Notes under the pieces: model-generated
Database searches by the model: none
What the model was told of the DNA's origin: nothing
What the model saw: only the letters and a program-made list of their open reading frames with translations
Position numbers and translations under genes: made by a program
Virus record (IMG/VR): IMGVR_UViG_2740892428_000001
Coordinates: 1 to 46,337 of that record
Reading direction: 5' to 3' (one strand)
From: a virus
Lineage: Duplodnaviria; Heunggongvirae; Uroviricota; Caudoviricetes
Length of the DNA stretch: 46,337 nt
In this document: piece after piece, positions 8,101 through 37,981 of the stretch
Numbering within the stretch: position 1 is the stretch's first letter
Layout of the letters: each line of letters begins with the position of its first letter

Positions 8101-8578
8101 TGGTTTTACCCTTAATGGTGATGTCTTTTTCCGTCACCCAGCCACCGTTACGTTGTATCTGAACCAGCAGGCGGACTTCCGATGGATTCCTGTCCCCCTT
8201 TGAGGTGGTTTCCACCAGTGCCTGCACACCGAAGGTAAAGCGCAGACGGTCGATGTTTGCCGACGTGATGGTGCGGGTGATCGGCGTGTCATATTTCACT
8301 TCCGTACCCAGCACCGTCTCGGAACCGGAGGATTCAAACCCCTCCGGCGGAGTCTGCTCCTGCTCACCGGCCCGGAACACCACCGTGACACCGGCGATGT
8401 TGGTATTCCCTTCACTGTCCAGCACCGGCGTACTGTTCAGCAGCACGCTTTTTAATCCATCCACCGGACCTTCTATCGGCCCTTCGCTGATGGCATCGAT
8501 CACACTCAGTAACTGCGTGGATTTCAGGTTGTCCTTCGCTTCGCGCGGGGTATGCCCCTTATTGCTGCCTTTACCCAT
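5183..8578 (-). CDS. J: tail tip / host specificity protein J
   Basis: 1131 aa; N-terminus [24 protein letters not shown] and overall sequence match lambda J as recalled; position between I and stf. Confidence 0.95.
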
Positions 8579-8638
8579 TCGTCATGCTCCATAAACGACA
8601 AAACCGCCCGCAGGCGGTTTCACATAAAACATTTTGCA

Positions 8639-9310
8639 TCAGCGACCAATCACCACAACCTGACCACCATCCCCTTCGTCTGCCGTGCTGATCTCCTGAG
8701 AAACCACCCGCGACCCCACACGCATTTCACCGTACAGAACAGGCAAAACATTGCCCTGGGCAACCATGTTATCCAGTGAGGAGAAATAGGTGTTCTGCTT
8801 ACCGTTATCCGTTGTCTGTGTGCGGGGAGTTCTGGCTTTCGGTGCCAGCATCTGAGCCACACCGCCGAGCACCATACTGGCACCGAGAGAAAACAGAATG
8901 CCGGTCATACCACCGGCCCCAATGGCTGTCCCCCATGCTGCAAGGGTGGCTCCGGCGGTAAAGAATGATCCGGCAATGGCGGCTGCCCCCAGGACAATCT
9001 GGAATACGCCACCTGACTTGGCCCCGGCGACTCTGGGAACGATATGAATCACAGCGCCGTCAGGCAGAGCCTCATGTAACTGCGCCGTTAATCCGGACGT
9101 GCTGACATCCTGCCCGGCAATACGTACCTGATACCAGCCGTCGCTCAGTTTCTGACGAAACGAAGGGAGCTGTGTGGCCAGCGCCCGGATGGCTTCAGCC
9201 CCCGTTTTCACACGAAGGTCGATGCGGCGGCCAAATCGTTGTAAATCCCCGTAAAGGCAGATGCGTGCCATGCCCGGTGACGCCAGAGGGAGTGTGTGCG
9301 TCGCTGCCAT
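8639..9310 (-). CDS. I: tail tip assembly protein I
   Basis: 223 aa, same length as lambda I; glycine-rich hydrophobic C-terminal half; overlaps the K 3' end as in lambda. Confidence 0.9.
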   Translation of the reverse strand: MAATHTLPLASPGMARICLYGDLQRFGRRIDLRVKTGAEAIRALATQLPSFRQKLSDGWYQVRIAGQDVSTSGLTAQLHEALPDGAVIHIVPRVAGAKSGGVFQIVLGAAAIAGSFFTAGATLAAWGTAIGAGGMTGILFSLGASMVLGGVAQMLAPKARTPRTQTTDNGKQNTYFSSLDNMVAQGNVLPVLYGEMRVGSRVVSQEISTADEGDGGQVVVIGR

Positions 9311-25858: not shown

Positions 25859-26061
25859 ATTTTCACTTTCTTAAATCTAACGACAGACGGCTAACATTTA
25901 AGTATTGTGAAATATTATCAAATGTAATCATCATTGATTTACAAAAGATACATTTTGCCCCGAAAGGATTCCTGTCAGAAACATCAAAAGATGATGTTCT
26001 ATACTGAGAACCATGGCAACACGGGCATCTAAAGTGAATATGGTTTGTAATATTTTCTACC

Positions 26062-26274
26062 TCAAAGTGCCACAACATGAACAGCCGCGGGGCCTTTAGG
26101 TCCGTTCTCAATACCAAATTCGACTTCCTGATTCTCAGTTAACGTTTTGAAATCGTTGCTCTGAATAGCTGAGAAATGGACAAACACATCTTTGCTACCA
26201 TCTTTCGGCGTGATGAAACCAAAACCTTTTTCAGGGTTAAACCATTTCACTAAACCAGTCATTTTGTTAGACAT
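26062..26274 (-). CDS. cspI: cold-shock protein family (CspI-like)
   Basis: 70 aa from [38 protein letters not shown] (RNP1/RNP2 motifs); long AT-rich 5' region upstream as in csp genes. Confidence 0.8.
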
Positions 26275-26637
26275 CATTATTACCTTTTGAAGAAGTTAGC
26301 CCTTGGGCAGAATGGTCCGAAAAAAAATATCAGAGAGAAAAACCAACAAGGAAATCTCAAGAGGTACAAATAATAAAATTATAACAATGACTGCTTCAGA
26401 TAATTTTGTAACAAACCAGAACACCATTAACGCATGATTAACCAACCATAGCAAGGATTACTTTTGTAAAGAAAAACACACGAATGAAACAATAGCTTTA
26501 TTTATTAATAAAACGTGTCATTCTGTCTAATGACCTTTTATCTTACCCTTAAGATTTCAAGGATTTTGACTCATGGAAGAGTCCTTTTTATTTAAATTTC
26601 ACATTCAGCGCTAAAAATAATCCGATTTAATATTAAT

Positions 26638-29234: not shown

Positions 29235-29509
29235 GTGGTGCTTTTTGTGGGAGTCATCCACTTACGCACTTTGTTTTGCTATGCCAGCAGTTAGCTTCTG
29301 CTGTAAAACTATTCATGCAGCAAACCTGCACTTCACCACAATGGTTAGCATACTTTTCCTGATTAAGTTATTGCCAAATATGCTGGCCATTGTTTCATGT
29401 ATTGGACCTCCTTACTATTTATTAAAGAGATCCAATATTCACCACTCTGTCTGTATCTCCACTCAGGCATCAGCCTTCTTCGTTATCGTATACAGACAAA
29501 CTATGAATT

Positions 29510-29725
29510 TTAATCAGTAATTATGACATTTGCTGCTGCAGGACCTTTAGCACCACTCTCTACAGAGAAGGTAACCTTTTGACCTTCAAATAAGGTTCGA
29601 AAATTATCATTCTGAATCGCAGAAAAATGCACAAACACATCTTTACTACCATCAACAGGAGAAATAAAGCCAAAACCTTTATCAGCGTTAAACCATTTTA
29701 CTAAACCAGTCATTTTATTTGACAT
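29510..29725 (-). CDS. cspB: cold-shock protein family (CspB-like)
   Basis: 71 aa [53 protein letters not shown]... Confidence 0.8.
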
Positions 29726-30025
29726 TCTACATTCCTTAACTTGAGCCTTTCGGCATAAATGGCTTGTATAACAGAAACGACTTCGTACTTAATTGGAGAG
29801 ACTCAAAGAAGGAATAAGTGAATAACACCTGAAATGAGAACTGCTTTAGTAAACTACTTCGTATATCGTCTGTTCTTCAAACCGACGCAATCATTAACGC
29901 ATAGTTGAACATATGAAGCAATGTTTATTTTAGACATCCAGCCATCTTCAACCCCATCAAAAAACTATAGCTTTCTTCAGGAAGGTGTGTATAGTGCGCC
30001 CAGTTATCAGTATTAAGGAATTTTT

Positions 30026-31455: not shown

Positions 31456-32422
31456 GATCGATAAAACGAAATATCAGCTCCAGCTGGGAGCCATACTTCT
31501 CTTCAAATGCCACGGTATCCGCATGCAGCTCGTCGTGATGCTTTCTGCACAAAGGCAACACAAAGAGGTCATGCGCTTTTGTTCCCATTCCACCCTGACC
31601 GTGACCTATCAGGTGGTGGGGATCATCAGCAGGCTTTCCACAACATGCACACGGCTGTGTCTTAACCCAGCGCGTGTACTTTTCATTAACCCAGCGGCGA
31701 CGTTTTGGGCGTAACATAAAAGACTCCGGCGACTCCGGATCCACTTTCAGCGCCAGCACCTTTTTTGCCTTATCCTGGATGATGCTGGTGGCAGGAACCG
31801 AAGGCACAAGGTCACTTTCCCGGGTGACAGACGGCACAACAGGCTTTGGTAATCTCAGTGCCTTACGGGCTGCACTTTCCGGTAAGGCATCCGCCAGGTC
31901 ATTACGAATCAGCCACCAGCACAGTTCCGGCATTGTCACAACGTGACTATCATCAAAACCGAGATCCCGACGCACAACAGACAACACCCAGCGGGCACAG
32001 TTATCCGTTGCCATTGATTCCAGCCGTTCCGTGAACTGATCGCGCAGCTGGTTATCGCAGTGCCAGCACAGACGGATTGCGCCCGTAGCGTGTCGCATTG
32101 TTGTCATATTCTCGCTGTGCCAGTCGGAATGAGGCCACTGGCAGCCTTTTTCACGAAGTAACCAGCTTTCAAGACATTCCACGCCACCAGCACGACGGAT
32201 CACTGCCTCATTGCGGAACACGGCCCGAACGGCAGGATCATCCGCCAGCGGTTGTGATGCCGCCGGAACGGCACCACTGGCGAAAGATGAATAACGTTCC
32301 GGCTCAGGCTCCAGCAGGACACGCCCCTGCATAAACAAGGGCATCAGCTCTGAACCTGGTCTGAACAATACGATCCCCATACGCGGGGCAATTTCAGGGG
32401 TCAGTAGTGCTCTCACGGTCAC
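31427..32422 (-). CDS. DUF968-family prophage protein with C-terminal HNH-like Cys/His motif
   Basis: 331 aa; C-terminal CACCGKPADDPHHLIGHGQGG...LPLCRKHHDELH; resembles YdfU-type proteins found next to Q in E. coli prophages (recalled). Confidence 0.65.
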   Translation of the reverse strand: MTVRALLTPEIAPRMGIVLFRPGSELMPLFMQGRVLLEPEPERYSSFASGAVPAASQPLADDPAVRAVFRNEAVIRRAGGVECLESWLLREKGCQWPHSDWHSENMTTMRHATGAIRLCWHCDNQLRDQFTERLESMATDNCARWVLSVVRRDLGFDDSHVVTMPELCWWLIRNDLADALPESAARKALRLPKPVVPSVTRESDLVPSVPATSIIQDKAKKVLALKVDPESPESFMLRPKRRRWVNEKYTRWVKTQPCACCGKPADDPHHLIGHGQGGMGTKAHDLFVLPLCRKHHDELHADTVAFEEKYGSQLELIFRFIDRALATGVLA

Positions 32423-32423
32423 C

Positions 32424-33239
32424 TCAATGAACGGTATCGAGCAGCTTTAACAGCTCAGGGAATCGGGATTCGAAGAAATGCGGCTGCGTCTCGCGCGGAT
32501 TTGCAGGACTGGTGATGTTCTTGCCGAACATGCAGCCTTTCGCGGTCAGCGACCAGAATTTTTTGATGTTGTTAATCGCGGTACGACTGTATCGTTCGCG
32601 TTGTTCAACGATCCCCAGCTTCGCCATCTGGTGATATGCCTGATTAGCCGTCAGGCGGATACCATACTGCTTCAGCAGTGCACTCAGCGACAGCGTAGGG
32701 CGGCTTGAACCATCTGGCGCATCAGCAGGTGCATCAATGGCATAGATCGGCATAAGTTCAGGAAGACCAGCTACCTTTGATAATTTCTGGTATGCACCAA
32801 GTTTCGAGGAGTTTGACAGATTTAGAGTCTTTGCTGCTGATTCAAGCAGAATGACCCCGGATTTAATTTTGTCGGATGTGGTTTCTTCTGGTGATGAATT
32901 ATGAAGCGCATCAAAAGTACGTATCACTTTTAAGCTGAATGCCGGGCTGATCCACATTGCATATGCATAGACCAGCTCTTTACAGACATACGTCCCACCA
33001 TTGCGCCCCTGAATGGTGATGACAGGAATACTACGGGAATCTCCCGTAGTTTCTTCTTCCAATAATTCCACAAGAGCCTTCGTTTCAGGACGACGCATAA
33101 ACTCGTGAACTTCCAGCGAACGGGAGGAGCGATTCTCACCAGCGGCAAGAAGAGCAGCTTTCTGAAGGTCGTTAAGACAGTAGTTAGATTCGAAGTACTG
33201 GCGCACAGAAACGCCATCAATTACAAGCAACTGATTCAT
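32424..33239 (-). CDS. KilA-N domain protein
   Basis: N-terminal NQLLVIDGVSVRQY...GRNGGTYVCKELVYAYAMWISPAFSLKVI is KilA-N-like; ATG at 33239 has a GGAG RBS; the six-frame ORF starts 4 codons earlier on GTG. Confidence 0.65.
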   Translation of the reverse strand: MNQLLVIDGVSVRQYFESNYCLNDLQKAALLAAGENRSSRSLEVHEFMRRPETKALVELLEEETTGDSRSIPVITIQGRNGGTYVCKELVYAYAMWISPAFSLKVIRTFDALHNSSPEETTSDKIKSGVILLESAAKTLNLSNSSKLGAYQKLSKVAGLPELMPIYAIDAPADAPDGSSRPTLSLSALLKQYGIRLTANQAYHQMAKLGIVEQRERYSRTAINNIKKFWSLTAKGCMFGKNITSPANPRETQPHFFESRFPELLKLLDTVH

Positions 33240-33401
33240 TGGTTTCTCCACAAATTTTTATCCACGAGCGGGACTGCACTCCCTTTTCGTTGATGCAGGA
33301 TGAACTTACTGCGATTTTTAATAGTTATCAAGGATACACTGTTCATAAATACAGTATCTTTAACGAGGTAATACCCAAATTTAGGGTGTTGCTCAATTCC
33401 G

Positions 33402-33797
33402 TTACCGAGTTGCTAATTTGCAACTCGCTTTTTCGTACTTACTGATAGTGATCTCGACCTTCCCCTCCGGGATAACCGGTCCCCACTCCACCAGCATTCT
33501 TTTCACCTGACTGTCGTCTTCCCACACCCCCGCGTGGGTCAGGGCGTCAAACAGCGCCTTGTTATAGTTGTCCAGATCGCGGATCCGGTTATCCGGAGGA
33601 AACAACACGATCTCCACTGAAGCAGGTGCCGACGTTGGTTTCGGCAGACGACGTAACTGCTCAACTATTGCTGCACACGCCGCGCTCTGGAATTTTCGCC
33701 CCGCCGCGCTTATCAGGCTCTTACCAGCAAACGCCCCTTTGTTGGGGTGTCGCCAGTACGTGTTCACGCTGGGCGGAAAAGGCAGGATCAGCTTCAT
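33402..33797 (-). CDS. rusA: Holliday junction resolvase RusA
   Basis: 131 aa; RIRDLDNYNKALFDALTHAGVWEDDSQV matches the RusA catalytic Asp-rich region. Confidence 0.85.
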   Translation of the reverse strand: MKLILPFPPSVNTYWRHPNKGAFAGKSLISAAGRKFQSAACAAIVEQLRRLPKPTSAPASVEIVLFPPDNRIRDLDNYNKALFDALTHAGVWEDDSQVKRMLVEWGPVIPEGKVEITISKYEKASCKLATR

Positions 33798-34120
33798 ACT
33801 TTCAGGCCTCTCTCATGTAACCAATGGGCTGCACGCAGCCTGGCGTTTTCCTCACCGGCAAGCAGTGAGCGGATAATCCCGACCGCCTCGCTGTCGTCGT
33901 CCTTCACCACGGTATGAAGCGTGATCCCCCGGGCCACACCACGCTTTATCGTGATGACGCCTTTTTTCTCCAGTGCGCGAAGATGCTCCACCGCTGCATT
34001 CACTGAACGGTATCCCAGCATGGTTGCCACCTCCTGATTGGTTGGCGGGAAGCCACGTTCTTTCTGATAAGAAATCAGCATATCCAGCACCTGCTGCTGG
34101 CATTGAGTTAACGTCGTCAT
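33794..34120 (-). CDS. LexA-type winged-helix DNA-binding domain protein without peptidase domain
   Basis: 108 aa; LTQCQQQVLDMLISYQKERGFPPTNQEVATMLGYRSVNAAVEHLRALEKKGVI closely parallels the LexA N-terminal domain; no S24 Ser/Lys peptidase part. Confidence 0.6.
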   Translation of the reverse strand: MTTLTQCQQQVLDMLISYQKERGFPPTNQEVATMLGYRSVNAAVEHLRALEKKGVITIKRGVARGITLHTVVKDDDSEAVGIIRSLLAGEENARLRAAHWLHERGLKV

Positions 34121-34770
34121 GCCGCCATCTCCCTGACCAGTTTTTCCGCCTGCTGGCGAACCTGCGCCAGAAACGCCTCACCACATGCCTCAAGTTCATC
34201 GCGCCCGATGTAGCTGATTGCCGGTCCCTTCCAGGTCTTGTCGAAAACAGCAATAGCACCAGCGAAGAAAGCGCCTGTCGGCACCTGCTTCTCATCTTTC
34301 GGGATAAACCAGGCAGGCAGTTCAAAACCAATACGCCCGCGAATAAAAGCAATATGATCTGCATCTTCCGGCCACCACACTTCGCTGGTGGCAGCTTTGA
34401 TCAGGAAAACATAGCGCCCGCCTTTATCACGCATGGCACTGGCATGTTTCATGATGTAACGCATGCCGGTGATGTATTGCCCCTCATGCTGACTGGCGCG
34501 GCTGTATGGGGGATTACCAAAGGCAGCACCTTTAAGCTCCGCAAGACGTTCTGACCAGTCATGCGCCAGCGCGTTGTCTTCCGCAGTGTAATAAGCGGCA
34601 CATTTGGCGTTATCACCATCAGTGAACAGATCCAGAACAAACGGGCCAAACAGGGTGTTAATTCCCCAGAAAATGTTATCCGGCGTGCGCCACTGATCGC
34701 CCACTTCCTTCAGTTCATGGGCTGGTTTGTTCCGCAGTTCCACCAGCGCCTGGCAATATTTATTACTCAT
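34117..34770 (-). CDS. phage DNA N6-adenine methyltransferase (Dam-like)
   Basis: NPPY motif (FGNPPYSR); ATG at 34770 with a GGGGG RBS overlapping the upstream stop (TAATG); the six-frame ORF extends to 34803. Confidence 0.8.
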   Translation of the reverse strand: MSNKYCQALVELRNKPAHELKEVGDQWRTPDNIFWGINTLFGPFVLDLFTDGDNAKCAAYYTAEDNALAHDWSERLAELKGAAFGNPPYSRASQHEGQYITGMRYIMKHASAMRDKGGRYVFLIKAATSEVWWPEDADHIAFIRGRIGFELPAWFIPKDEKQVPTGAFFAGAIAVFDKTWKGPAISYIGRDELEACGEAFLAQVRQQAEKLVREMAA

Positions 34771-35264
34771 TAAGCCCCCACGAAATTCCCTGACAGATAC
34801 CACTCTTCACCCGATGCAGCGCGCTTGCTGCTTTTCCGTAAGCACCGCTCACGACGTGCCAGAAAATTGTTTCGTTCTGGCTGGGAGTGGCTTTCACGGA
34901 ATGCCGCCATCCACACGGTTGCAGCACGACGGTATAAGCCCCTTGACTCCAGTTCTTCAGCCTGGCGGGTCAGGCACAAAATCACCCGGGGATCGTTAGT
35001 GCCGACATAGAAATTGCGCACAGGTCTGGTTTCACGAACTGGTTGTGGTTCCGGCTCCTGCGCTCTCTCAGTCAGGCGTGGGAAATGTCTGCGTGTATCT
35101 CCTTCACAACGGTGAGCCACACGCCCACTCTGACGTAACTTGCTTGCTGACTGCAGAACGCGCTGCCGTGAGTAACCTGCAAAAGCATCCGCAATGTCTC
35201 CGGAAGTACACCCCGGATGGGCTTCAATGAATTTCTGAACTTCATTCAAAAGACTCATGATCAC
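34770..35264 (-). CDS. hypothetical regulator-like protein (winged-helix-like N-terminus; possible PerC-like motif)
   Basis: 164 aa; the C-terminal LESRGLYRRAATVWMAA resembles the PerC-family signature as I recall it (weak); start overlaps the replication-gene stop (ATGA). Confidence 0.4.
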   Translation of the reverse strand: MIMSLLNEVQKFIEAHPGCTSGDIADAFAGYSRQRVLQSASKLRQSGRVAHRCEGDTRRHFPRLTERAQEPEPQPVRETRPVRNFYVGTNDPRVILCLTRQAEELESRGLYRRAATVWMAAFRESHSQPERNNFLARRERCLRKSSKRAASGEEWYLSGNFVGA

Positions 35265-36067
35265 CCCCTGAATCCTGCCGGGATCTGGCTGTAGTCCACG
35301 TTGTCGTAACTGGCTTTGAAGTACGGGTCCTCACGTCTGGCTGCAGATACCGCAGGAACTTCCCAGGATTCTTCGAAATGACGATCCGGGCCAAAGAACG
35401 TGACAGCCTGTTTCACAAATTGTGTGCCGCTGTTACCCATCGCAGATACCCAGCCCGCGTAGCGTTTCACACCTTCCAGCATGGTTTCGGGGTTTACCCC
35501 CTCATTCAAACGGGCTTTCCAGGCTTTGAAGGCTGCAGATTTTGAATTGCCACCAGCACGTTTGGGATATACCAGCCATGCCTGCTCAAACTCCGGAGAG
35601 TATTCCGGTCGGTTTGAACGAACTCGCACGGACTCATCAACTGATGCACCAACAGCTATTGGTTCATTGACTGGTTCAAAAGAGTGACTGGTTCTGGGTG
35701 AATCTCCTGCACTACCCCCTGGTGCAACTCCTGCACTACCTGGTGAATTTGCTGCACCAGATAGTGAATTATTTGCACTACCCCCTAGTGAATCTCCTGC
35801 ACCATCAAGATGAAGGAGATAGATATTACTTGAGTTACCTTTTTCACCTTTCCGGGTGACTTTTTTTACCAGCCCGGACTCACAAAGGGCCGCAATATGA
35901 TTCATCACAGAACGTTTGCTAATCTCGCACTGGTCAGCAATATGCTGGTAGCTGGGCCAGCACTCACCCTGATCGCTGGCATTATCAGCCAGCTTGATCA
36001 GAACCAGTTTTCGCAATGGATTACCCACTCGAATTTTCATCGCTTTAACCATCAGCTCCATACTCAT
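35261..36067 (-). CDS. replication initiator / replisome organiser (O-like), N-terminal HTH
   Basis: 268 aa; N-terminal HTH (NPLRKLVLIKLADNASDQGECWPSYQHIADQCEISKRSV); Gly/Ser/Ala-rich linker encoded by the iteron-like repeats; C-terminal domain. Confidence 0.6.
   Translation of the reverse strand: MSMELMVKAMKIRVGNPLRKLVLIKLADNASDQGECWPSYQHIADQCEISKRSVMNHIAALCESGLVKKVTRKGEKGNSSNIYLLHLDGAGDSLGGSANNSLSGAANSPGSAGVAPGGSAGDSPRTSHSFEPVNEPIAVGASVDESVRVRSNRPEYSPEFEQAWLVYPKRAGGNSKSAAFKAWKARLNEGVNPETMLEGVKRYAGWVSAMGNSGTQFVKQAVTFFGPDRHFEESWEVPAVSAARREDPYFKASYDNVDYSQIPAGFRG
35694..35803. repeat. iteron-like direct repeats (candidate replication origin) inside the initiator gene
   Basis: About four imperfect ~23-28 bp direct repeats of the unit (GGTGAAT)CTCCTGCACTACC(CCC)TGGTG, followed by a short AT-rich stretch; lambda ori likewise lies inside O. 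Confidence 0.5.
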
Positions 36068-36288
36068 GCTGCACCTCCGAGATGCTTCATGTTTTTTCCG
36101 GAGCGAAAGGCTATAAGCGGCATACTGACGCGGTAATTACGGCCCAGCGGTTCACAAATCACCTTCTGACATTCACGGTCAACCAGGCTAACACGTAGAA
36201 CATGCCCTGCAGGTGTGGTGTACCACTGACCCGGACGAGGACAACGGAAAGTCTGATTGGTAAACCGTTTGAAAATATTCCGGATCAT
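36064..36288 (-). CDS. hypothetical small protein, translationally coupled on both sides
   Basis: 74 aa; ATGA overlaps with the upstream Rha stop and the downstream initiator start. Confidence 0.35.
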   Translation of the reverse strand: MIRNIFKRFTNQTFRCPRPGQWYTTPAGHVLRVSLVDRECQKVICEPLGRNYRVSMPLIAFRSGKNMKHLGGAA

Positions 36289-37433
36289 TTGCGCCCCCTT
36301 ACCTCTGAAGGGTTCAGCGACAAATTTATGAGGCAGGCCAGCGCCGAAGCATCATTAATATAGTCATACAAGCTAACAGCCAGCGGAGATTCGGCTTTTG
36401 CCAACATAGGATAAAGCTGCTGCAGCCAGACCTGATGAATTGATGAAATGTAGGAATAGAGAACGCTGGCGTTATGTGCAACGTCGCTCGGTACAGGGGG
36501 TTTTGAAAGCTGTTTCTCCATCTGGTTAAAGGCATTGATATATGCCTCTTTGAACTGGGCAGCACGTTTACCCGTGAAACCCATAGCAAGAAACGCAAAG
36601 CCGTCGCGGGTTATTTGATAGCAAGGTAGTTTGCGGCCTGATGCGTCGATGTACTCACTGAGCTGAAAATTCAGCTCAGTAAATTCGGCAGAGCATTCAA
36701 GAGACGCAATTTTTTGAATGACATTTTTGTGTTGTTTGCCGAAATAACTAGCAACAGCCAGAGAAGAAGTAACAACTTTGTCTGCAATAATGCAAAGTTC
36801 AGGTTGTACTAAGGCAGGGATCGTAGCCATGATGGCAGCCTCCGTATGCAATGGATAACTTCCACCACCGGAAACGCCAATTTCGCTGGTGGTGAACTGA
36901 GCAGGGTTGGCGTAACCGGCGCATACGGAAACCGGCGCACCTTTCGGTGCCCCCACCCAGCCCACCATAATTTGGGTATAGCTGAGTTGTAGCAACAAAA
37001 AAGACGCTAACGCGCCAATTGTCGCCGTATGCAATTCCAGGACGCCAATCCCGGCACCCGCTTTATAAGGTGCCTGAACAGTGTAACGTCCCGGAATGGC
37101 AGAATCAATGTGCTGGTGGTCCTTCACACTCAACAAAATCACGCCTGAATTTCCACAAAGGACTAAAGCACTCATGCGGGTAGTCTTTGCGAAGATAGAT
37201 AACGCGCTGTGTTTCTGGTTCCCAACGAATAACATGAACATAAAGCCCTCTTCCGTCACGAAACCAGCGGTTAAGTTCCTGCACAACTCGCCCCCCACAG
37301 TCAGGTAAAGTTCTCTGTGGTTACTTACAGCCAGGTGATTTGGTAATCTGCATTCATGCCGTAACAACAGGTGTTCAGAGACGCTGACCACCAGCTGTTG
37401 CGACAAACGGTTATTTGCCGTTAAACTGTTCAT
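36285..37433 (-). CDS. Rha-family phage regulatory protein; long ORF whose N-terminal ~200 codons are of uncertain coding status
   Basis: The C-terminal 182 aa (from MATIPALVQPELCIIADKVVTSSLAVASYFGKQHKNVIQKI, internal ATG at 36830 with a GGAGG RBS) is Rha-like; the frame stays open up to an ATG at 37433 that overlaps the YdaT-like stop. Confidence 0.45.
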   Translation of the reverse strand: MNSLTANNRLSQQLVVSVSEHLLLRHECRLPNHLAVSNHRELYLTVGGELCRNLTAGFVTEEGFMFMLFVGNQKHSALSIFAKTTRMSALVLCGNSGVILLSVKDHQHIDSAIPGRYTVQAPYKAGAGIGVLELHTATIGALASFLLLQLSYTQIMVGWVGAPKGAPVSVCAGYANPAQFTTSEIGVSGGGSYPLHTEAAIMATIPALVQPELCIIADKVVTSSLAVASYFGKQHKNVIQKIASLECSAEFTELNFQLSEYIDASGRKLPCYQITRDGFAFLAMGFTGKRAAQFKEAYINAFNQMEKQLSKPPVPSDVAHNASVLYSYISSIHQVWLQQLYPMLAKAESPLAVSLYDYINDASALACLINLSLNPSEVRGRK

Positions 37434-37981
37434 GCGTTAGTTTCTCCACAGACACAAAACGCCACGACGCCCGGAGCTGCACACTCGCGGGCGTCACTCT
37501 TTTCTGGAGCGCAAAAGATTTTGTAGACCAGTGCTGCATGCTCCTGGAGCTTCGAAATTGACAGATACAACTCATCATTAATTGCTGTCTGCTCGTGTGG
37601 CTCCACTACCCCATCTTCGATTGCCGAACGAATCTGTTTTGAGTAACTCCCGATCTGTTCGATGACTTCCAGCAGGCGCTGGTTTATATCGGCGTTCTCA
37701 ACTTCCTCAATGTCAGGAAGCGATACAAACACCCCACCTGCAGACTGTGCGACAGCATCCGCAATGTAGTGAGTGCCAGCCGCGCGCTGTAAAATCATTG
37801 CCCATCCCAGCGGGAAAATCTGATTGCCATCTGCACGAAGGCGGTTGAATAAAGCGTTCTCTGTTACATCCAGCCACTCAGCAGCTTCAGCGTAACCCCC
37901 CGGCAACGCCGCGATAGTTTTTCTGACAGCTTTCACGTACCACTCAGGCTGTTTTTCCACTTTCCAGTGATGCTTACCCAC
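37430..37981 (-). CDS. YdaT-like protein (candidate CII-type regulator)
   Basis: 183 aa immediately downstream of the cro-like gene; resembles YdaT proteins of E. coli cryptic prophages as recalled. Confidence 0.45.
   Translation of the reverse strand: MGKHHWKVEKQPEWYVKAVRKTIAALPGGYAEAAEWLDVTENALFNRLRADGNQIFPLGWAMILQRAAGTHYIADAVAQSAGGVFVSLPDIEEVENADINQRLLEVIEQIGSYSKQIRSAIEDGVVEPHEQTAINDELYLSISKLQEHAALVYKIFCAPEKSDARECAAPGVVAFCVCGETNA

Follow-up and report, generated by a model that had tools for sequence, protein, structure and literature searches.

What does the DNA encode that precedes the gene of a Rha-family regulator in the Caudoviricetes record IMGVR_UViG_2740892428_000001, where one reading frame stays open for 382 codons from the stop of the upstream gene to the end of Rha? 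The window is the whole stretch analysed, 46,337 nucleotides long, and the segment in question occupies 37433-36285, all of its genes and features being carried by the minus strand. The DNA of this region is 100% identical with prophages of several E. coli chromosomes and 99.2% identical with phage PhiR47_1, and annotations of identical DNA disagree. In RefSeq it is modelled either as one 382-amino-acid "Rha family" protein or as a 296-amino-acid Rha starting from ATG 37175 together with a 59-amino-acid DUF4222 protein, while other records give an "ash family protein" plus DUF4222; WP_001589618.1, WP_227481758.1, and WP_001341559.1 are the RefSeq proteins with inconsistent models at 36285-37433. 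The isrK and C4 RNA genes described below are unmarked in every annotated record examined. An earlier note on this DNA interpreted the part upstream of Rha as non-coding sequence, as what is left of an older gene, or as the code for an N-terminal domain fused to Rha. None of these three options is sufficient by itself. As judged from sequence comparison, the segment is probably an immunity RNA cassette of the P4 type nested in a long frame, with one extra gene overprinted on it. Its principal features are as follows.

36285..37433, minus strand: long open reading frame (ORF) of 382 codons, putative counterpart of P4 eta (ORF list and frame analysis)
37430-37433, minus strand: ATGA overlap of the ymfL stop and the long-ORF start (sequence)
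37285..37433, minus strand: YmfM-like leader, codons 1-50 of the long ORF (in the position of the N-terminus of e14 YmfM)
37105..37284, minus strand: DUF4222 gene, 59 amino acids, with GTG start and G-run Shine-Dalgarno (Pfam PF13973, PHROG, selection)
37080..37108, minus strand: putative internal promoter, counterpart of Gifsy-1 PisrK and P4 PLE (positional homology)
36997..37073, minus strand: small RNA of the IsrK / P4 seqA type (Rfam RF01394, terminator)
36885..36972, minus strand: antisense RNA of the C4 / P4 CI type (Rfam RF01695)
36966..36968, minus strand: AUG of an upstream ORF, homologue of Gifsy-1 orf45 (5' strand of the C4 basal stem)
36839..36880, minus strand: downstream target boxes b2 and a2 (complementarity to C4)
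36285..36830, minus strand: Rha-family regulator of antirepressor type, 181 amino acids (Pfam, TIGRFAM, PHROG)

The presence of the two RNA genes in the segment is almost certain. The isrK match to RF01394 reaches 61.2 bits against a gathering score of 50, its intrinsic terminator is composed of a stem at 37016-37003 and a U-run extending to 36997, and compensatory changes affect 5 of its 10 pairs. C4 matches RF01695 over the full length of the model (1-87) with 80.7 bits against a gathering score of 45. Its three helices include 27 pairs, which are 100% paired in 15 sequences and changed on both sides in 9 cases; slid controls are paired by 35-48%, and the covariation of 0.404, compared with 0.194 in shuffles, was equalled in 0 of 500 of them. 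The same combination of isrK and C4, separated by about 25 nt and followed immediately by an antirepressor-type gene, is found in Gifsy-1, P4, and 14 other phages, cassette carriers including Stx phages, mEp460, phiV10, APSE-2, a Yersinia phage, and an Actinobacillus phage, with Rha, Ant, Bro, or "anti-immunity" genes as the cargo. A promoter-like element precedes isrK, with TTGATT (37108-37103) and TACACT (37085-37080) separated by 17 nt and +1 at 37073; homologues have TTGACR-17-TATATT at the same position, and Gifsy-1 has TTGACA-17-TATATT. A consensus promoter scan found nothing here, the internal promoter falling below its threshold, so the assignment was made from homology alone; PisrK activity has been demonstrated in Gifsy-1 only (PMC4825925).

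The recognition elements of C4 and their predicted partners are the following, all on the minus strand.

36931-36921, minus strand: C4 recognition loop a', UUUCCGUAUGC, hairpin loop
36913-36907, minus strand: single-stranded b' of C4, ACGCCAA
37032-37025, minus strand: box a1 in isrK, GCAUACGG, complementary to a'
37048-37042, minus strand: box b1 in isrK, UUGGCGU, complementary to b'
36880-36874, minus strand: box b2, UUGGCGU, complementary to b'
36849-36839, minus strand: box a2, GCAUACGGAGG, complementary to a' and covering the GGAGG Shine-Dalgarno of Rha

Thus the loops of C4 are complementary both to the boxes within isrK and to boxes covering the Shine-Dalgarno of Rha, and this three-way match co-varies. 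At least 18 types of a'/b' occur among 96 loci, and in each of them the a1/a2 and b1/b2 boxes match the cognate RNA. The predicted duplex of the window's downstream boxes with its own C4 has an energy of -42 kcal/mol compared with a mean of -23 for non-cognate pairs. Mean values for cognate and non-cognate combinations are -32.5 vs -23.1 downstream and -34.8 vs -24.3 upstream, which is about 10 kcal/mol better for the former. The abundance of co-varying types suggests a ready-made set of orthogonal RNA regulators.

Residues 222-307 of the long ORF match Pfam PF09669 Phage_pRha (1.5e-32, 112 bits), and Rha also matches TIGR02681 with 116-118 bits and the PHROG families of Rha and anti-repressors. 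The internal ATG of Rha with its GGAGG, pointed out in the earlier note, is present (36830-36828 and 36843-36839, respectively); the Ile codon ATC at 36833-36831 directly precedes this ATG, and no stop separates the frames. The 382-codon ORF itself and its ATGA overlap with the upstream stop had likewise been described correctly, with the start at ATG 37433, preceded by GGAG at 37447-37444, and the end at 36285. An identical junction sequence is found between ymfL and ymfM of e14. The upstream gene, formerly labelled YdaT-like, is identified as ymfL, encoding a CII-like protein of the Phage_CP76 family, 89% identical to YmfL of e14.

Whether the frame between these ends encodes a protein under selection was assessed by two kinds of counts: variable sites at codon positions 1/2/3 in the window aligned with five phage homologues, and polymorphisms in 76 distinct sequences, comprising the window and 75 close relatives from IMG/VR. 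The genes serving as controls demonstrate clear codon periodicity in their own frames (46/34/94, P=3e-8 for Rha; 73/52/133, P=1e-9 for ymfL). Over 37284-37108 the polymorphism falls into the frame of DUF4222, with 11 synonymous and 1 non-synonymous changes and a ratio of non-synonymous to synonymous polymorphism (pN/pS) of 0.02, as against 1 and 11, respectively, and pN/pS of 2.9 in the long frame. Variable sites in the DUF4222 frame are distributed as 4/3/16 (P=0.001), and identity to the e14 copy amounts to 63% of amino acids in this frame vs 29% in that of ymfM. The product of 37105-37284 matches Pfam PF13973 DUF4222 (9.5e-14) and, in full length, phrog_1343 (1e-36). Since both selection and codon phases fall in its frame, DUF4222 is a real gene under strong purifying selection, read in a frame different from that of the long ORF; its stop codon lies within the -35 hexamer of the internal promoter. 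Over isrK, C4, and the target region the long frame has no codon periodicity at all (35/38/39, P=0.89). Amino acids of the long frame are thus unconstrained over DUF4222 and over the RNA genes, and the idea of the 382-amino-acid ORF as a single conserved protein is ruled out for its middle part by codon-phase and pN/pS tests alike. For the first 50 codons the constraint is at best weak or doubtful: 10 synonymous and 16 non-synonymous changes give pN/pS of 0.48 (P=0.05 against neutrality), comparison with Salmonella phages gives 0.40-0.46, and variable sites over 37433-37285 are spread as 10/12/13 (P=0.82). A search for homologues of residues 1-212 gave 1306 matches, and all 120 of those listed are 96-100% identical, which makes them uninformative on constraint. 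It had been suggested previously that clear homologues of the full-length protein would settle the ORF as coding. This expectation proved misleading, the hundreds of near-identical "ash family" and "Rha" proteins in databases consisting in part of residues that experience no selection at the codon level.

The name "ash" requires separate consideration. Residues 117-212 of the long ORF match Pfam PF10554 Phage_ASH with 2.4e-17 and 63.8 bits vs a gathering score of 26, and the match covers 37085-36798, beginning with the -10 hexamer and reaching codon 10 of Rha. A translation of 46 amino acids limited to C4 and the target region suffices to match positions 49-94 of the profile (1.9e-11), and the obsolete "cI gene product" ORF of P4, which lies over the CI RNA, matches positions 44-107. 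The core of the profile is therefore a translation of C4 in the window as well as in P4, and "Ash" accordingly is a conceptual, possibly real, translation of an eta-like leader rather than a domain shaped by selection at the protein level, of which its residues bear no sign, their codon phases being the flat ones quoted above. The same Ash segment is contained in PHROG families 821, 995, 3960, 4908, and 6928, so that Pfam "Ash" and several PHROG families of "transcriptional regulators" are largely translations of the C4/CI RNA gene. The earlier statement that the extension has no recognizable domain is therefore superseded by Phage_ASH in the long frame, DUF4222 in the other one, and isrK and C4 among Rfam families.

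Although its amino acids are not conserved, the frame is maintained free of stops and in register with Rha. Neither stops nor frameshifts interrupt it in any of the 75 relatives, in which the segment is 99% conserved. Cassettes fall into two classes. In those of the Gifsy type a short upstream ORF begins from the AUG of the C4 stem and extends no further than the start of the antirepressor, and length differences among these cassettes can take any value. In the class to which the window belongs, the C4-stem ORF has no stop, is in frame with the downstream ATG, and is open upstream through isrK; the window's own ORF from AUG 36968 runs accordingly into Rha. Over 33 distinct cassettes of the latter class the long frame contains 0 stop triplets, while the two other frames contain 8+8 distinct ones over isrK and the spacer (nominal P 0.0015) and 12+14 from C4 to the ATG (nominal P 3e-5), and the lengths of all four indels observed within the class are divisible by three. 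Another 66 distinct cassettes were collected by a C4 motif only; in 38 of them the frame is open both upstream past isrK and into the cargo gene, and in 22 it is open in neither direction. An ATG located 50-68 nt upstream of the isrK start, often with a Shine-Dalgarno, recurs in many unrelated contexts.

The closest precedent for such an arrangement is provided by the satellite P4. In the model of Forti et al. 1999, as summarised in PMC10111431, a constitutive promoter lies inside eta, and its transcript ends early via CI/seqA and is processed to the CI immunity RNA; according to the same account, Kil is made on read-through only, full-length Eta is translated only from an upstream promoter, in coupling with the upstream gene, and its translation prevents termination. 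Homologues of CI/seqA have also been noted inside the "Bro network" genes of satellites (PMC10111431). In P4 sequence the ORF at 8168-8767, encoding 197-199 amino acids, has three adjacent ATG codons overlapping the ORF88 stop and spans matches of the isrK type (8692-8615) and of C4 (8507-8420). This ORF is eta, with kil as its terminal part: the last 65 codons begin with MAT within GGAGGCTGCCATCATGGCTAC, a run of 21 nt identical to the start of Rha in the window, and in both genomes the nested start is located 55 nt after C4. The window shares with eta/kil a long ORF that originates from the stop of the upstream gene (ATGA with ymfL here, the coupling being putative, and ORF88 in P4), begins upstream of the internal promoter, passes over seqA/isrK and then CI/C4, and ends in frame with a shorter 3' ORF nested in it. 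The cargo differs, being Rha of 181 amino acids here and not the 65-amino-acid Kil, to which Rha is unrelated, and by BLASTP only the RNA-derived part resembles Eta. Other differences from P4 are the position in the early operon of a lambdoid prophage, with cro-like and ymfL genes, instead of a satellite, and the long frame that begins with a YmfM-like leader and overprints DUF4222. The window therefore repeats the P4 arrangement, Rha taking the position of Kil and ymfL that of the alpA homologue.

Gifsy-1 offers the second point of reference. There the antirepressor gene is transcribed from the isrK promoter upstream of it into a message that stays untranslated because the middle of IsrK pairs with the orf45/C4 region, and the short IsrK supplied in trans activates translation (PMC4825925). 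Order and spacing of the parts of the isrK-orf45-anrP locus, namely promoter, IsrK with terminator, C4-like RNA (STnc1160), and antirepressor-type gene, agree with those of the window, and the same AUG within the C4 stem begins its upstream ORF. G28 and G31 of IsrK, which were mutated there and pair with the orf45 region (PMC4825925), fall into box b1 here. However, orf45 stops at an ATGA overlap with anrP, which is read in another frame (termination-reinitiation), whereas in the window there is no stop and the fusion is in frame; the far-upstream open frame is present here and not in Gifsy-1; and the Gifsy-1 locus adjoins antQ, while this one belongs to the early right operon. The immI region of P1/P7 shares the Rfam family C4 and the antirepressor output with the window and differs by the Ant type of the P1 cargo; no icd homologue was identified here, and here the cassette is nested in a long ORF. 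The c4 RNA of P1 (the system of Citron & Schuster 1990) reportedly has the same layout of recognition elements as C4 of the window, its a'/b' facing one target pair upstream, a1/b1, and a second one, a2/b2, that covers the downstream gene's ribosome-binding site. Parts and design are thus already known from P1 c4, P4 CI/eta/kil, and Gifsy-1 IsrK, while Rha as the nested cargo, the position in a lambdoid early operon, and the overprinting of DUF4222 on the long frame are distinctive for the window.

A scheme of control can be proposed on these grounds, the part concerning C4, IsrK, and Rha being modelled on all three systems and the step of translational override on P4 eta/kil. Transcription from the internal promoter (37108-37080) would yield an IsrK/seqA-like RNA beginning at 37073 and ending at the terminator at 36997 and, on read-through past 36997, the C4/CI-like antisense RNA of 36972-36885. 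In the lysogen C4 is expected to pair with b2/a2 and to block translation of Rha, so that transcripts from the internal promoter would terminate or stay silent. The boxes of IsrK may titrate C4 as decoys and thereby release Rha, IsrK acting as decoy or activator. Transcripts from the early promoter, which pass through the cro-like gene and ymfL, would carry an upstream start, either ATG 37433 coupled to ymfL or GTG 37127 being a candidate. Ribosomes following the long frame would then traverse promoter, IsrK, and C4, preventing RNA folding and action of the terminator, and a long form of Rha together with downstream replication genes would thereby become insensitive to the RNA immunity. The DUF4222 protein would be made separately, from its own GTG in the other frame. 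Such translation through the cassette, if it occurs, explains why the frame is open and in phase even though its amino acids are not conserved.

Several observations weigh against this proposal. The internal promoter matches the consensus in 8 of 12 positions and was missed by the scan; GTG 37127 and ATG 37175 have no good Shine-Dalgarno; the first 50 codons show weak constraint; and Rha is unrelated to P4 Kil, so that downstream consequences may differ. The test for avoidance of stops is approximate, given that cassettes share descent and constraints on the RNAs limit the triplets that are possible. Gifsy-type cassettes have an upstream ORF that is short, or cut down to 8 codons, and translation through the cassette is therefore not universal. 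The last point bears directly on the alternative in which isrK and C4 merely regulate the 181-amino-acid Rha, while the frame upstream of 36830 (or 36968) is never translated and owes its openness to descent and G+C-rich composition. The evident ability of Gifsy-type cassettes to function with a short upstream ORF is consistent with this, as are the lack of codon periodicity or amino-acid constraint over 37104-36831 and the value of pN/pS of the long frame over DUF4222. Nevertheless, we regard the alternative as unlikely: it has to accommodate the absence of stops from the long frame vs 42 distinct stop triplets in the others, the restriction of all four indels to multiples of three, a start codon that recurs just upstream of the internal promoter in unrelated contexts, and the homologous long ORF of P4, eta, reported in PMC10111431 to be translated and to prevent termination. 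The former suggestion of non-coding sequence thus holds for 37073-36839, where RNA genes and target boxes reside, and fails to account for a frame kept open in phase with Rha.

Another alternative, that the protein truly consists of two domains, a folded "Ash" joined to Rha, and that the matches to RNA families are incidental, would explain the strong in-frame Phage_ASH hit and the N-terminus shared by hundreds of database proteins named ash family or Rha. We give it very little credence, since the core of Ash (49-94) is matched by the 46-amino-acid translation of C4 alone and by the P4 "cI protein" ORF, substitutions are not phased by codons, and the variation respects RNA pairing, inside C4 as well as of C4 with its targets. 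What survives of the N-terminal fusion proposed previously is that an extended Rha is plausible, its extension being a leader unconstrained in sequence and not a folded domain. A decaying remnant of an older gene, or pseudogene spacer, is scarcely credible. It would agree with the weakness of selection in the first 50 codons and with inconsistent RefSeq gene calls on identical DNA, but a region 99% conserved in 75 relatives that holds a gene under strong purifying selection and RNAs supported by their structures lends this option no support. The preferred reading, a nested P4-type cassette, can be extended to a joint one, in which the long frame is translated only to melt the cassette and so to override RNA immunity in lytic growth, DUF4222 is overprinted, and the frame originated when a YmfM-type ORF became joined in phase to the cassette, at the codon that serves e14 ymfM as stop. 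Taken with all of its parts, this joint account is tentative, and we would sooner doubt than assert it. If true, the eta principle of P4 would apply to early operons of lambdoid prophages and to Rha antirepressors as well. The preferred reading by itself accounts for a gene model that has been puzzling in hundreds of E. coli genomes, and it puts a second, RNA-based immunity switch over an antirepressor inside the early right operon of a common type of lambdoid prophage, a position which bears on prophage induction and on cross-immunity between co-resident prophages.

As for the origin of the long frame, prophage e14 is the informative counterpart, sharing with the window YmfL and its junction, the start MNSLT, and a DUF4222 ORF that overlaps in another frame. 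It differs by the absence of both the isrK/C4 cassette and Rha, by the ymfM frame that stops at codon 112, where the window has GTG 37127, and by the clear constraint on the first 60 codons of ymfM (pN/pS 0.11, n=72 e14-type relatives), unlike the window leader.

37125..37127, minus strand: GTG codon at the putative module junction (codon alignment by eye)

This GTG aligns, by eye, with the TAG stop of e14 ymfM and also with the ATG from which the eta-like ORF starts in other cassette contexts (ATGAAGCGCCACCAGCATATTGATT against GTGAAGGACCACCAGCACATTGATT). The order of ymfL and a ymfM-type ORF of 111-112 codons with MNSL start, overlapping DUF4222, is found in e14, mEp390, SfIV, KpF5, and another E. 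coli prophage. The long ORF therefore looks like an in-frame join of a ymfM-type ORF (codons 1-102), an eta-like leader (103-201), and Rha (202-382); in terms of content, it would be an in-frame run of YmfM-like leader, a stretch overprinting DUF4222, RNA cassette, and Rha. The leader and the N-terminus of e14 YmfM have MNSLT..R.SQ as the sole shared sequence, the PHROG search with residues 1-50 returned no match and hence no N-terminal homology with YmfM (phrog_1170), and neither stable structure nor terminator was found in 37433-37285 (fold z = -0.5). Homology with YmfM indicated by tblastn for residues 1-99 (E=8e-6) was discarded for its part over residues 51-99, which is an artefact of DUF4222 conservation in the other frame. 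A programmed frameshift from the YmfM N-terminus to DUF4222 was set aside as well: no slippery heptamer was seen by eye at the e14 junction, and DUF4222 has its own conserved Shine-Dalgarno and start codon.

The block formed by the ymfM-like leader and DUF4222 (37085-37440) is more than 99% conserved among the 76 sequences and is flanked by strong variation on the side of ymfL and on the side of the RNA cassette, indicating mosaic module boundaries near 37480 and near 37085. The same block is joined to cassettes of at least six specificity types. Three IMG/VR contigs (L203, 4676-5355; L204, 3664-4340; L219, 9775-11107) carry C4 cassettes in tandem sets of two or three with a distance of 656 bp, each placed within its own eta-like ORF and each having a different recognition loop, and these may represent arrays of RNA immunity units.

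The earlier note also drew attention to two Chi octamers (GCTGGTGG), which were found at the positions given there; a third had been missed.

36885..36892, plus strand: Chi octamer 1, complement of the C4 3' end, CACCACC + AGC
37112..37119, plus strand: Chi octamer 2, last DUF4222 codons, the conserved stretch just upstream of the internal promoter
37388..37395, minus strand: Chi octamer 3, in the YmfM-like leader

Chi in E. coli usually occurs about once per 4.6 kb. The whole window contains 13 octamers compared with 1.9 expected from shuffles, a density near the usual one, and local enrichment reaches 3 octamers in 603 bp (Poisson P about 3e-4 at usual E. coli density). The 5.6-kb early region at 31784-37395 holds 10 of the 13, 4 on the plus and 6 on the minus strand (Poisson P about 7e-7). 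This clustering above the usual density is what speaks for a recombination hotspot or an element protecting against RecBCD, yet the orientations are mixed and every site of the segment belongs to sequence that other constraints account for. Site 1 occurs in 40 of the 75 close relatives, namely where AGC happens to follow CCACC, the only conserved part, and in no other phage homologue; site 2 is missing from homologues in Salmonella phages, recurring in some cassettes and lost in others; site 3 is found in 71 of 75 relatives. A function of Chi here is thus very improbable, and it was rejected as a feature for the lack of conservation among homologues and the mixed orientations. The sites are incidental to the C4 3' end and to the conserved stretch that precedes the internal promoter, with no sign of function.

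Overlap with DUF4222 has consequences for e14 itself. In E. coli K-12 (L004, 4823-5181) the 112-amino-acid ymfM, annotated as a "cell division inhibitor", overlaps a DUF4222 ORF (Pfam 8.6e-19) having a TTG start with AAGGAG as Shine-Dalgarno. Over the overlap 1 synonymous and 14 non-synonymous changes are counted in the ymfM frame and 14 and 1, respectively, in that of DUF4222, and one K-12 record of the Prokaryotic Genome Annotation Pipeline (PGAP) has DUF4222 annotated in place of ymfM. In the study of ymfM the entire ORF was cloned, frame-specific controls being absent, and the clone also expresses the nested DUF4222 ORF. Either product could therefore cause filamentation, which raises a concrete and testable doubt over which product of the clone blocks division in the SOS filamentation credited to e14 YmfM. 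A further ORF of 74 amino acids right after Rha (36064-36288, minus strand) matches phrog_1153 (1e-45), the family to which DUF4222 ORFs of the window and e14 have weak similarity (0.008 and 7e-7, respectively), and may be a distant DUF4222 paralogue flanking the cassette.

Two more RNA family matches were encountered. In phage Nil2 (L012, 2322-2405) the Rfam family sRNA-Xcc1 is matched with 79 bits in an element that interrupts ant downstream of the cassette. In the window itself, two full-length matches to the Rfam cspA thermoregulator on the minus strand (29447-29886 and 26016-26432, 156 and 110 bits) indicate two cold-shock-protein genes with 5' leaders in the prophage.

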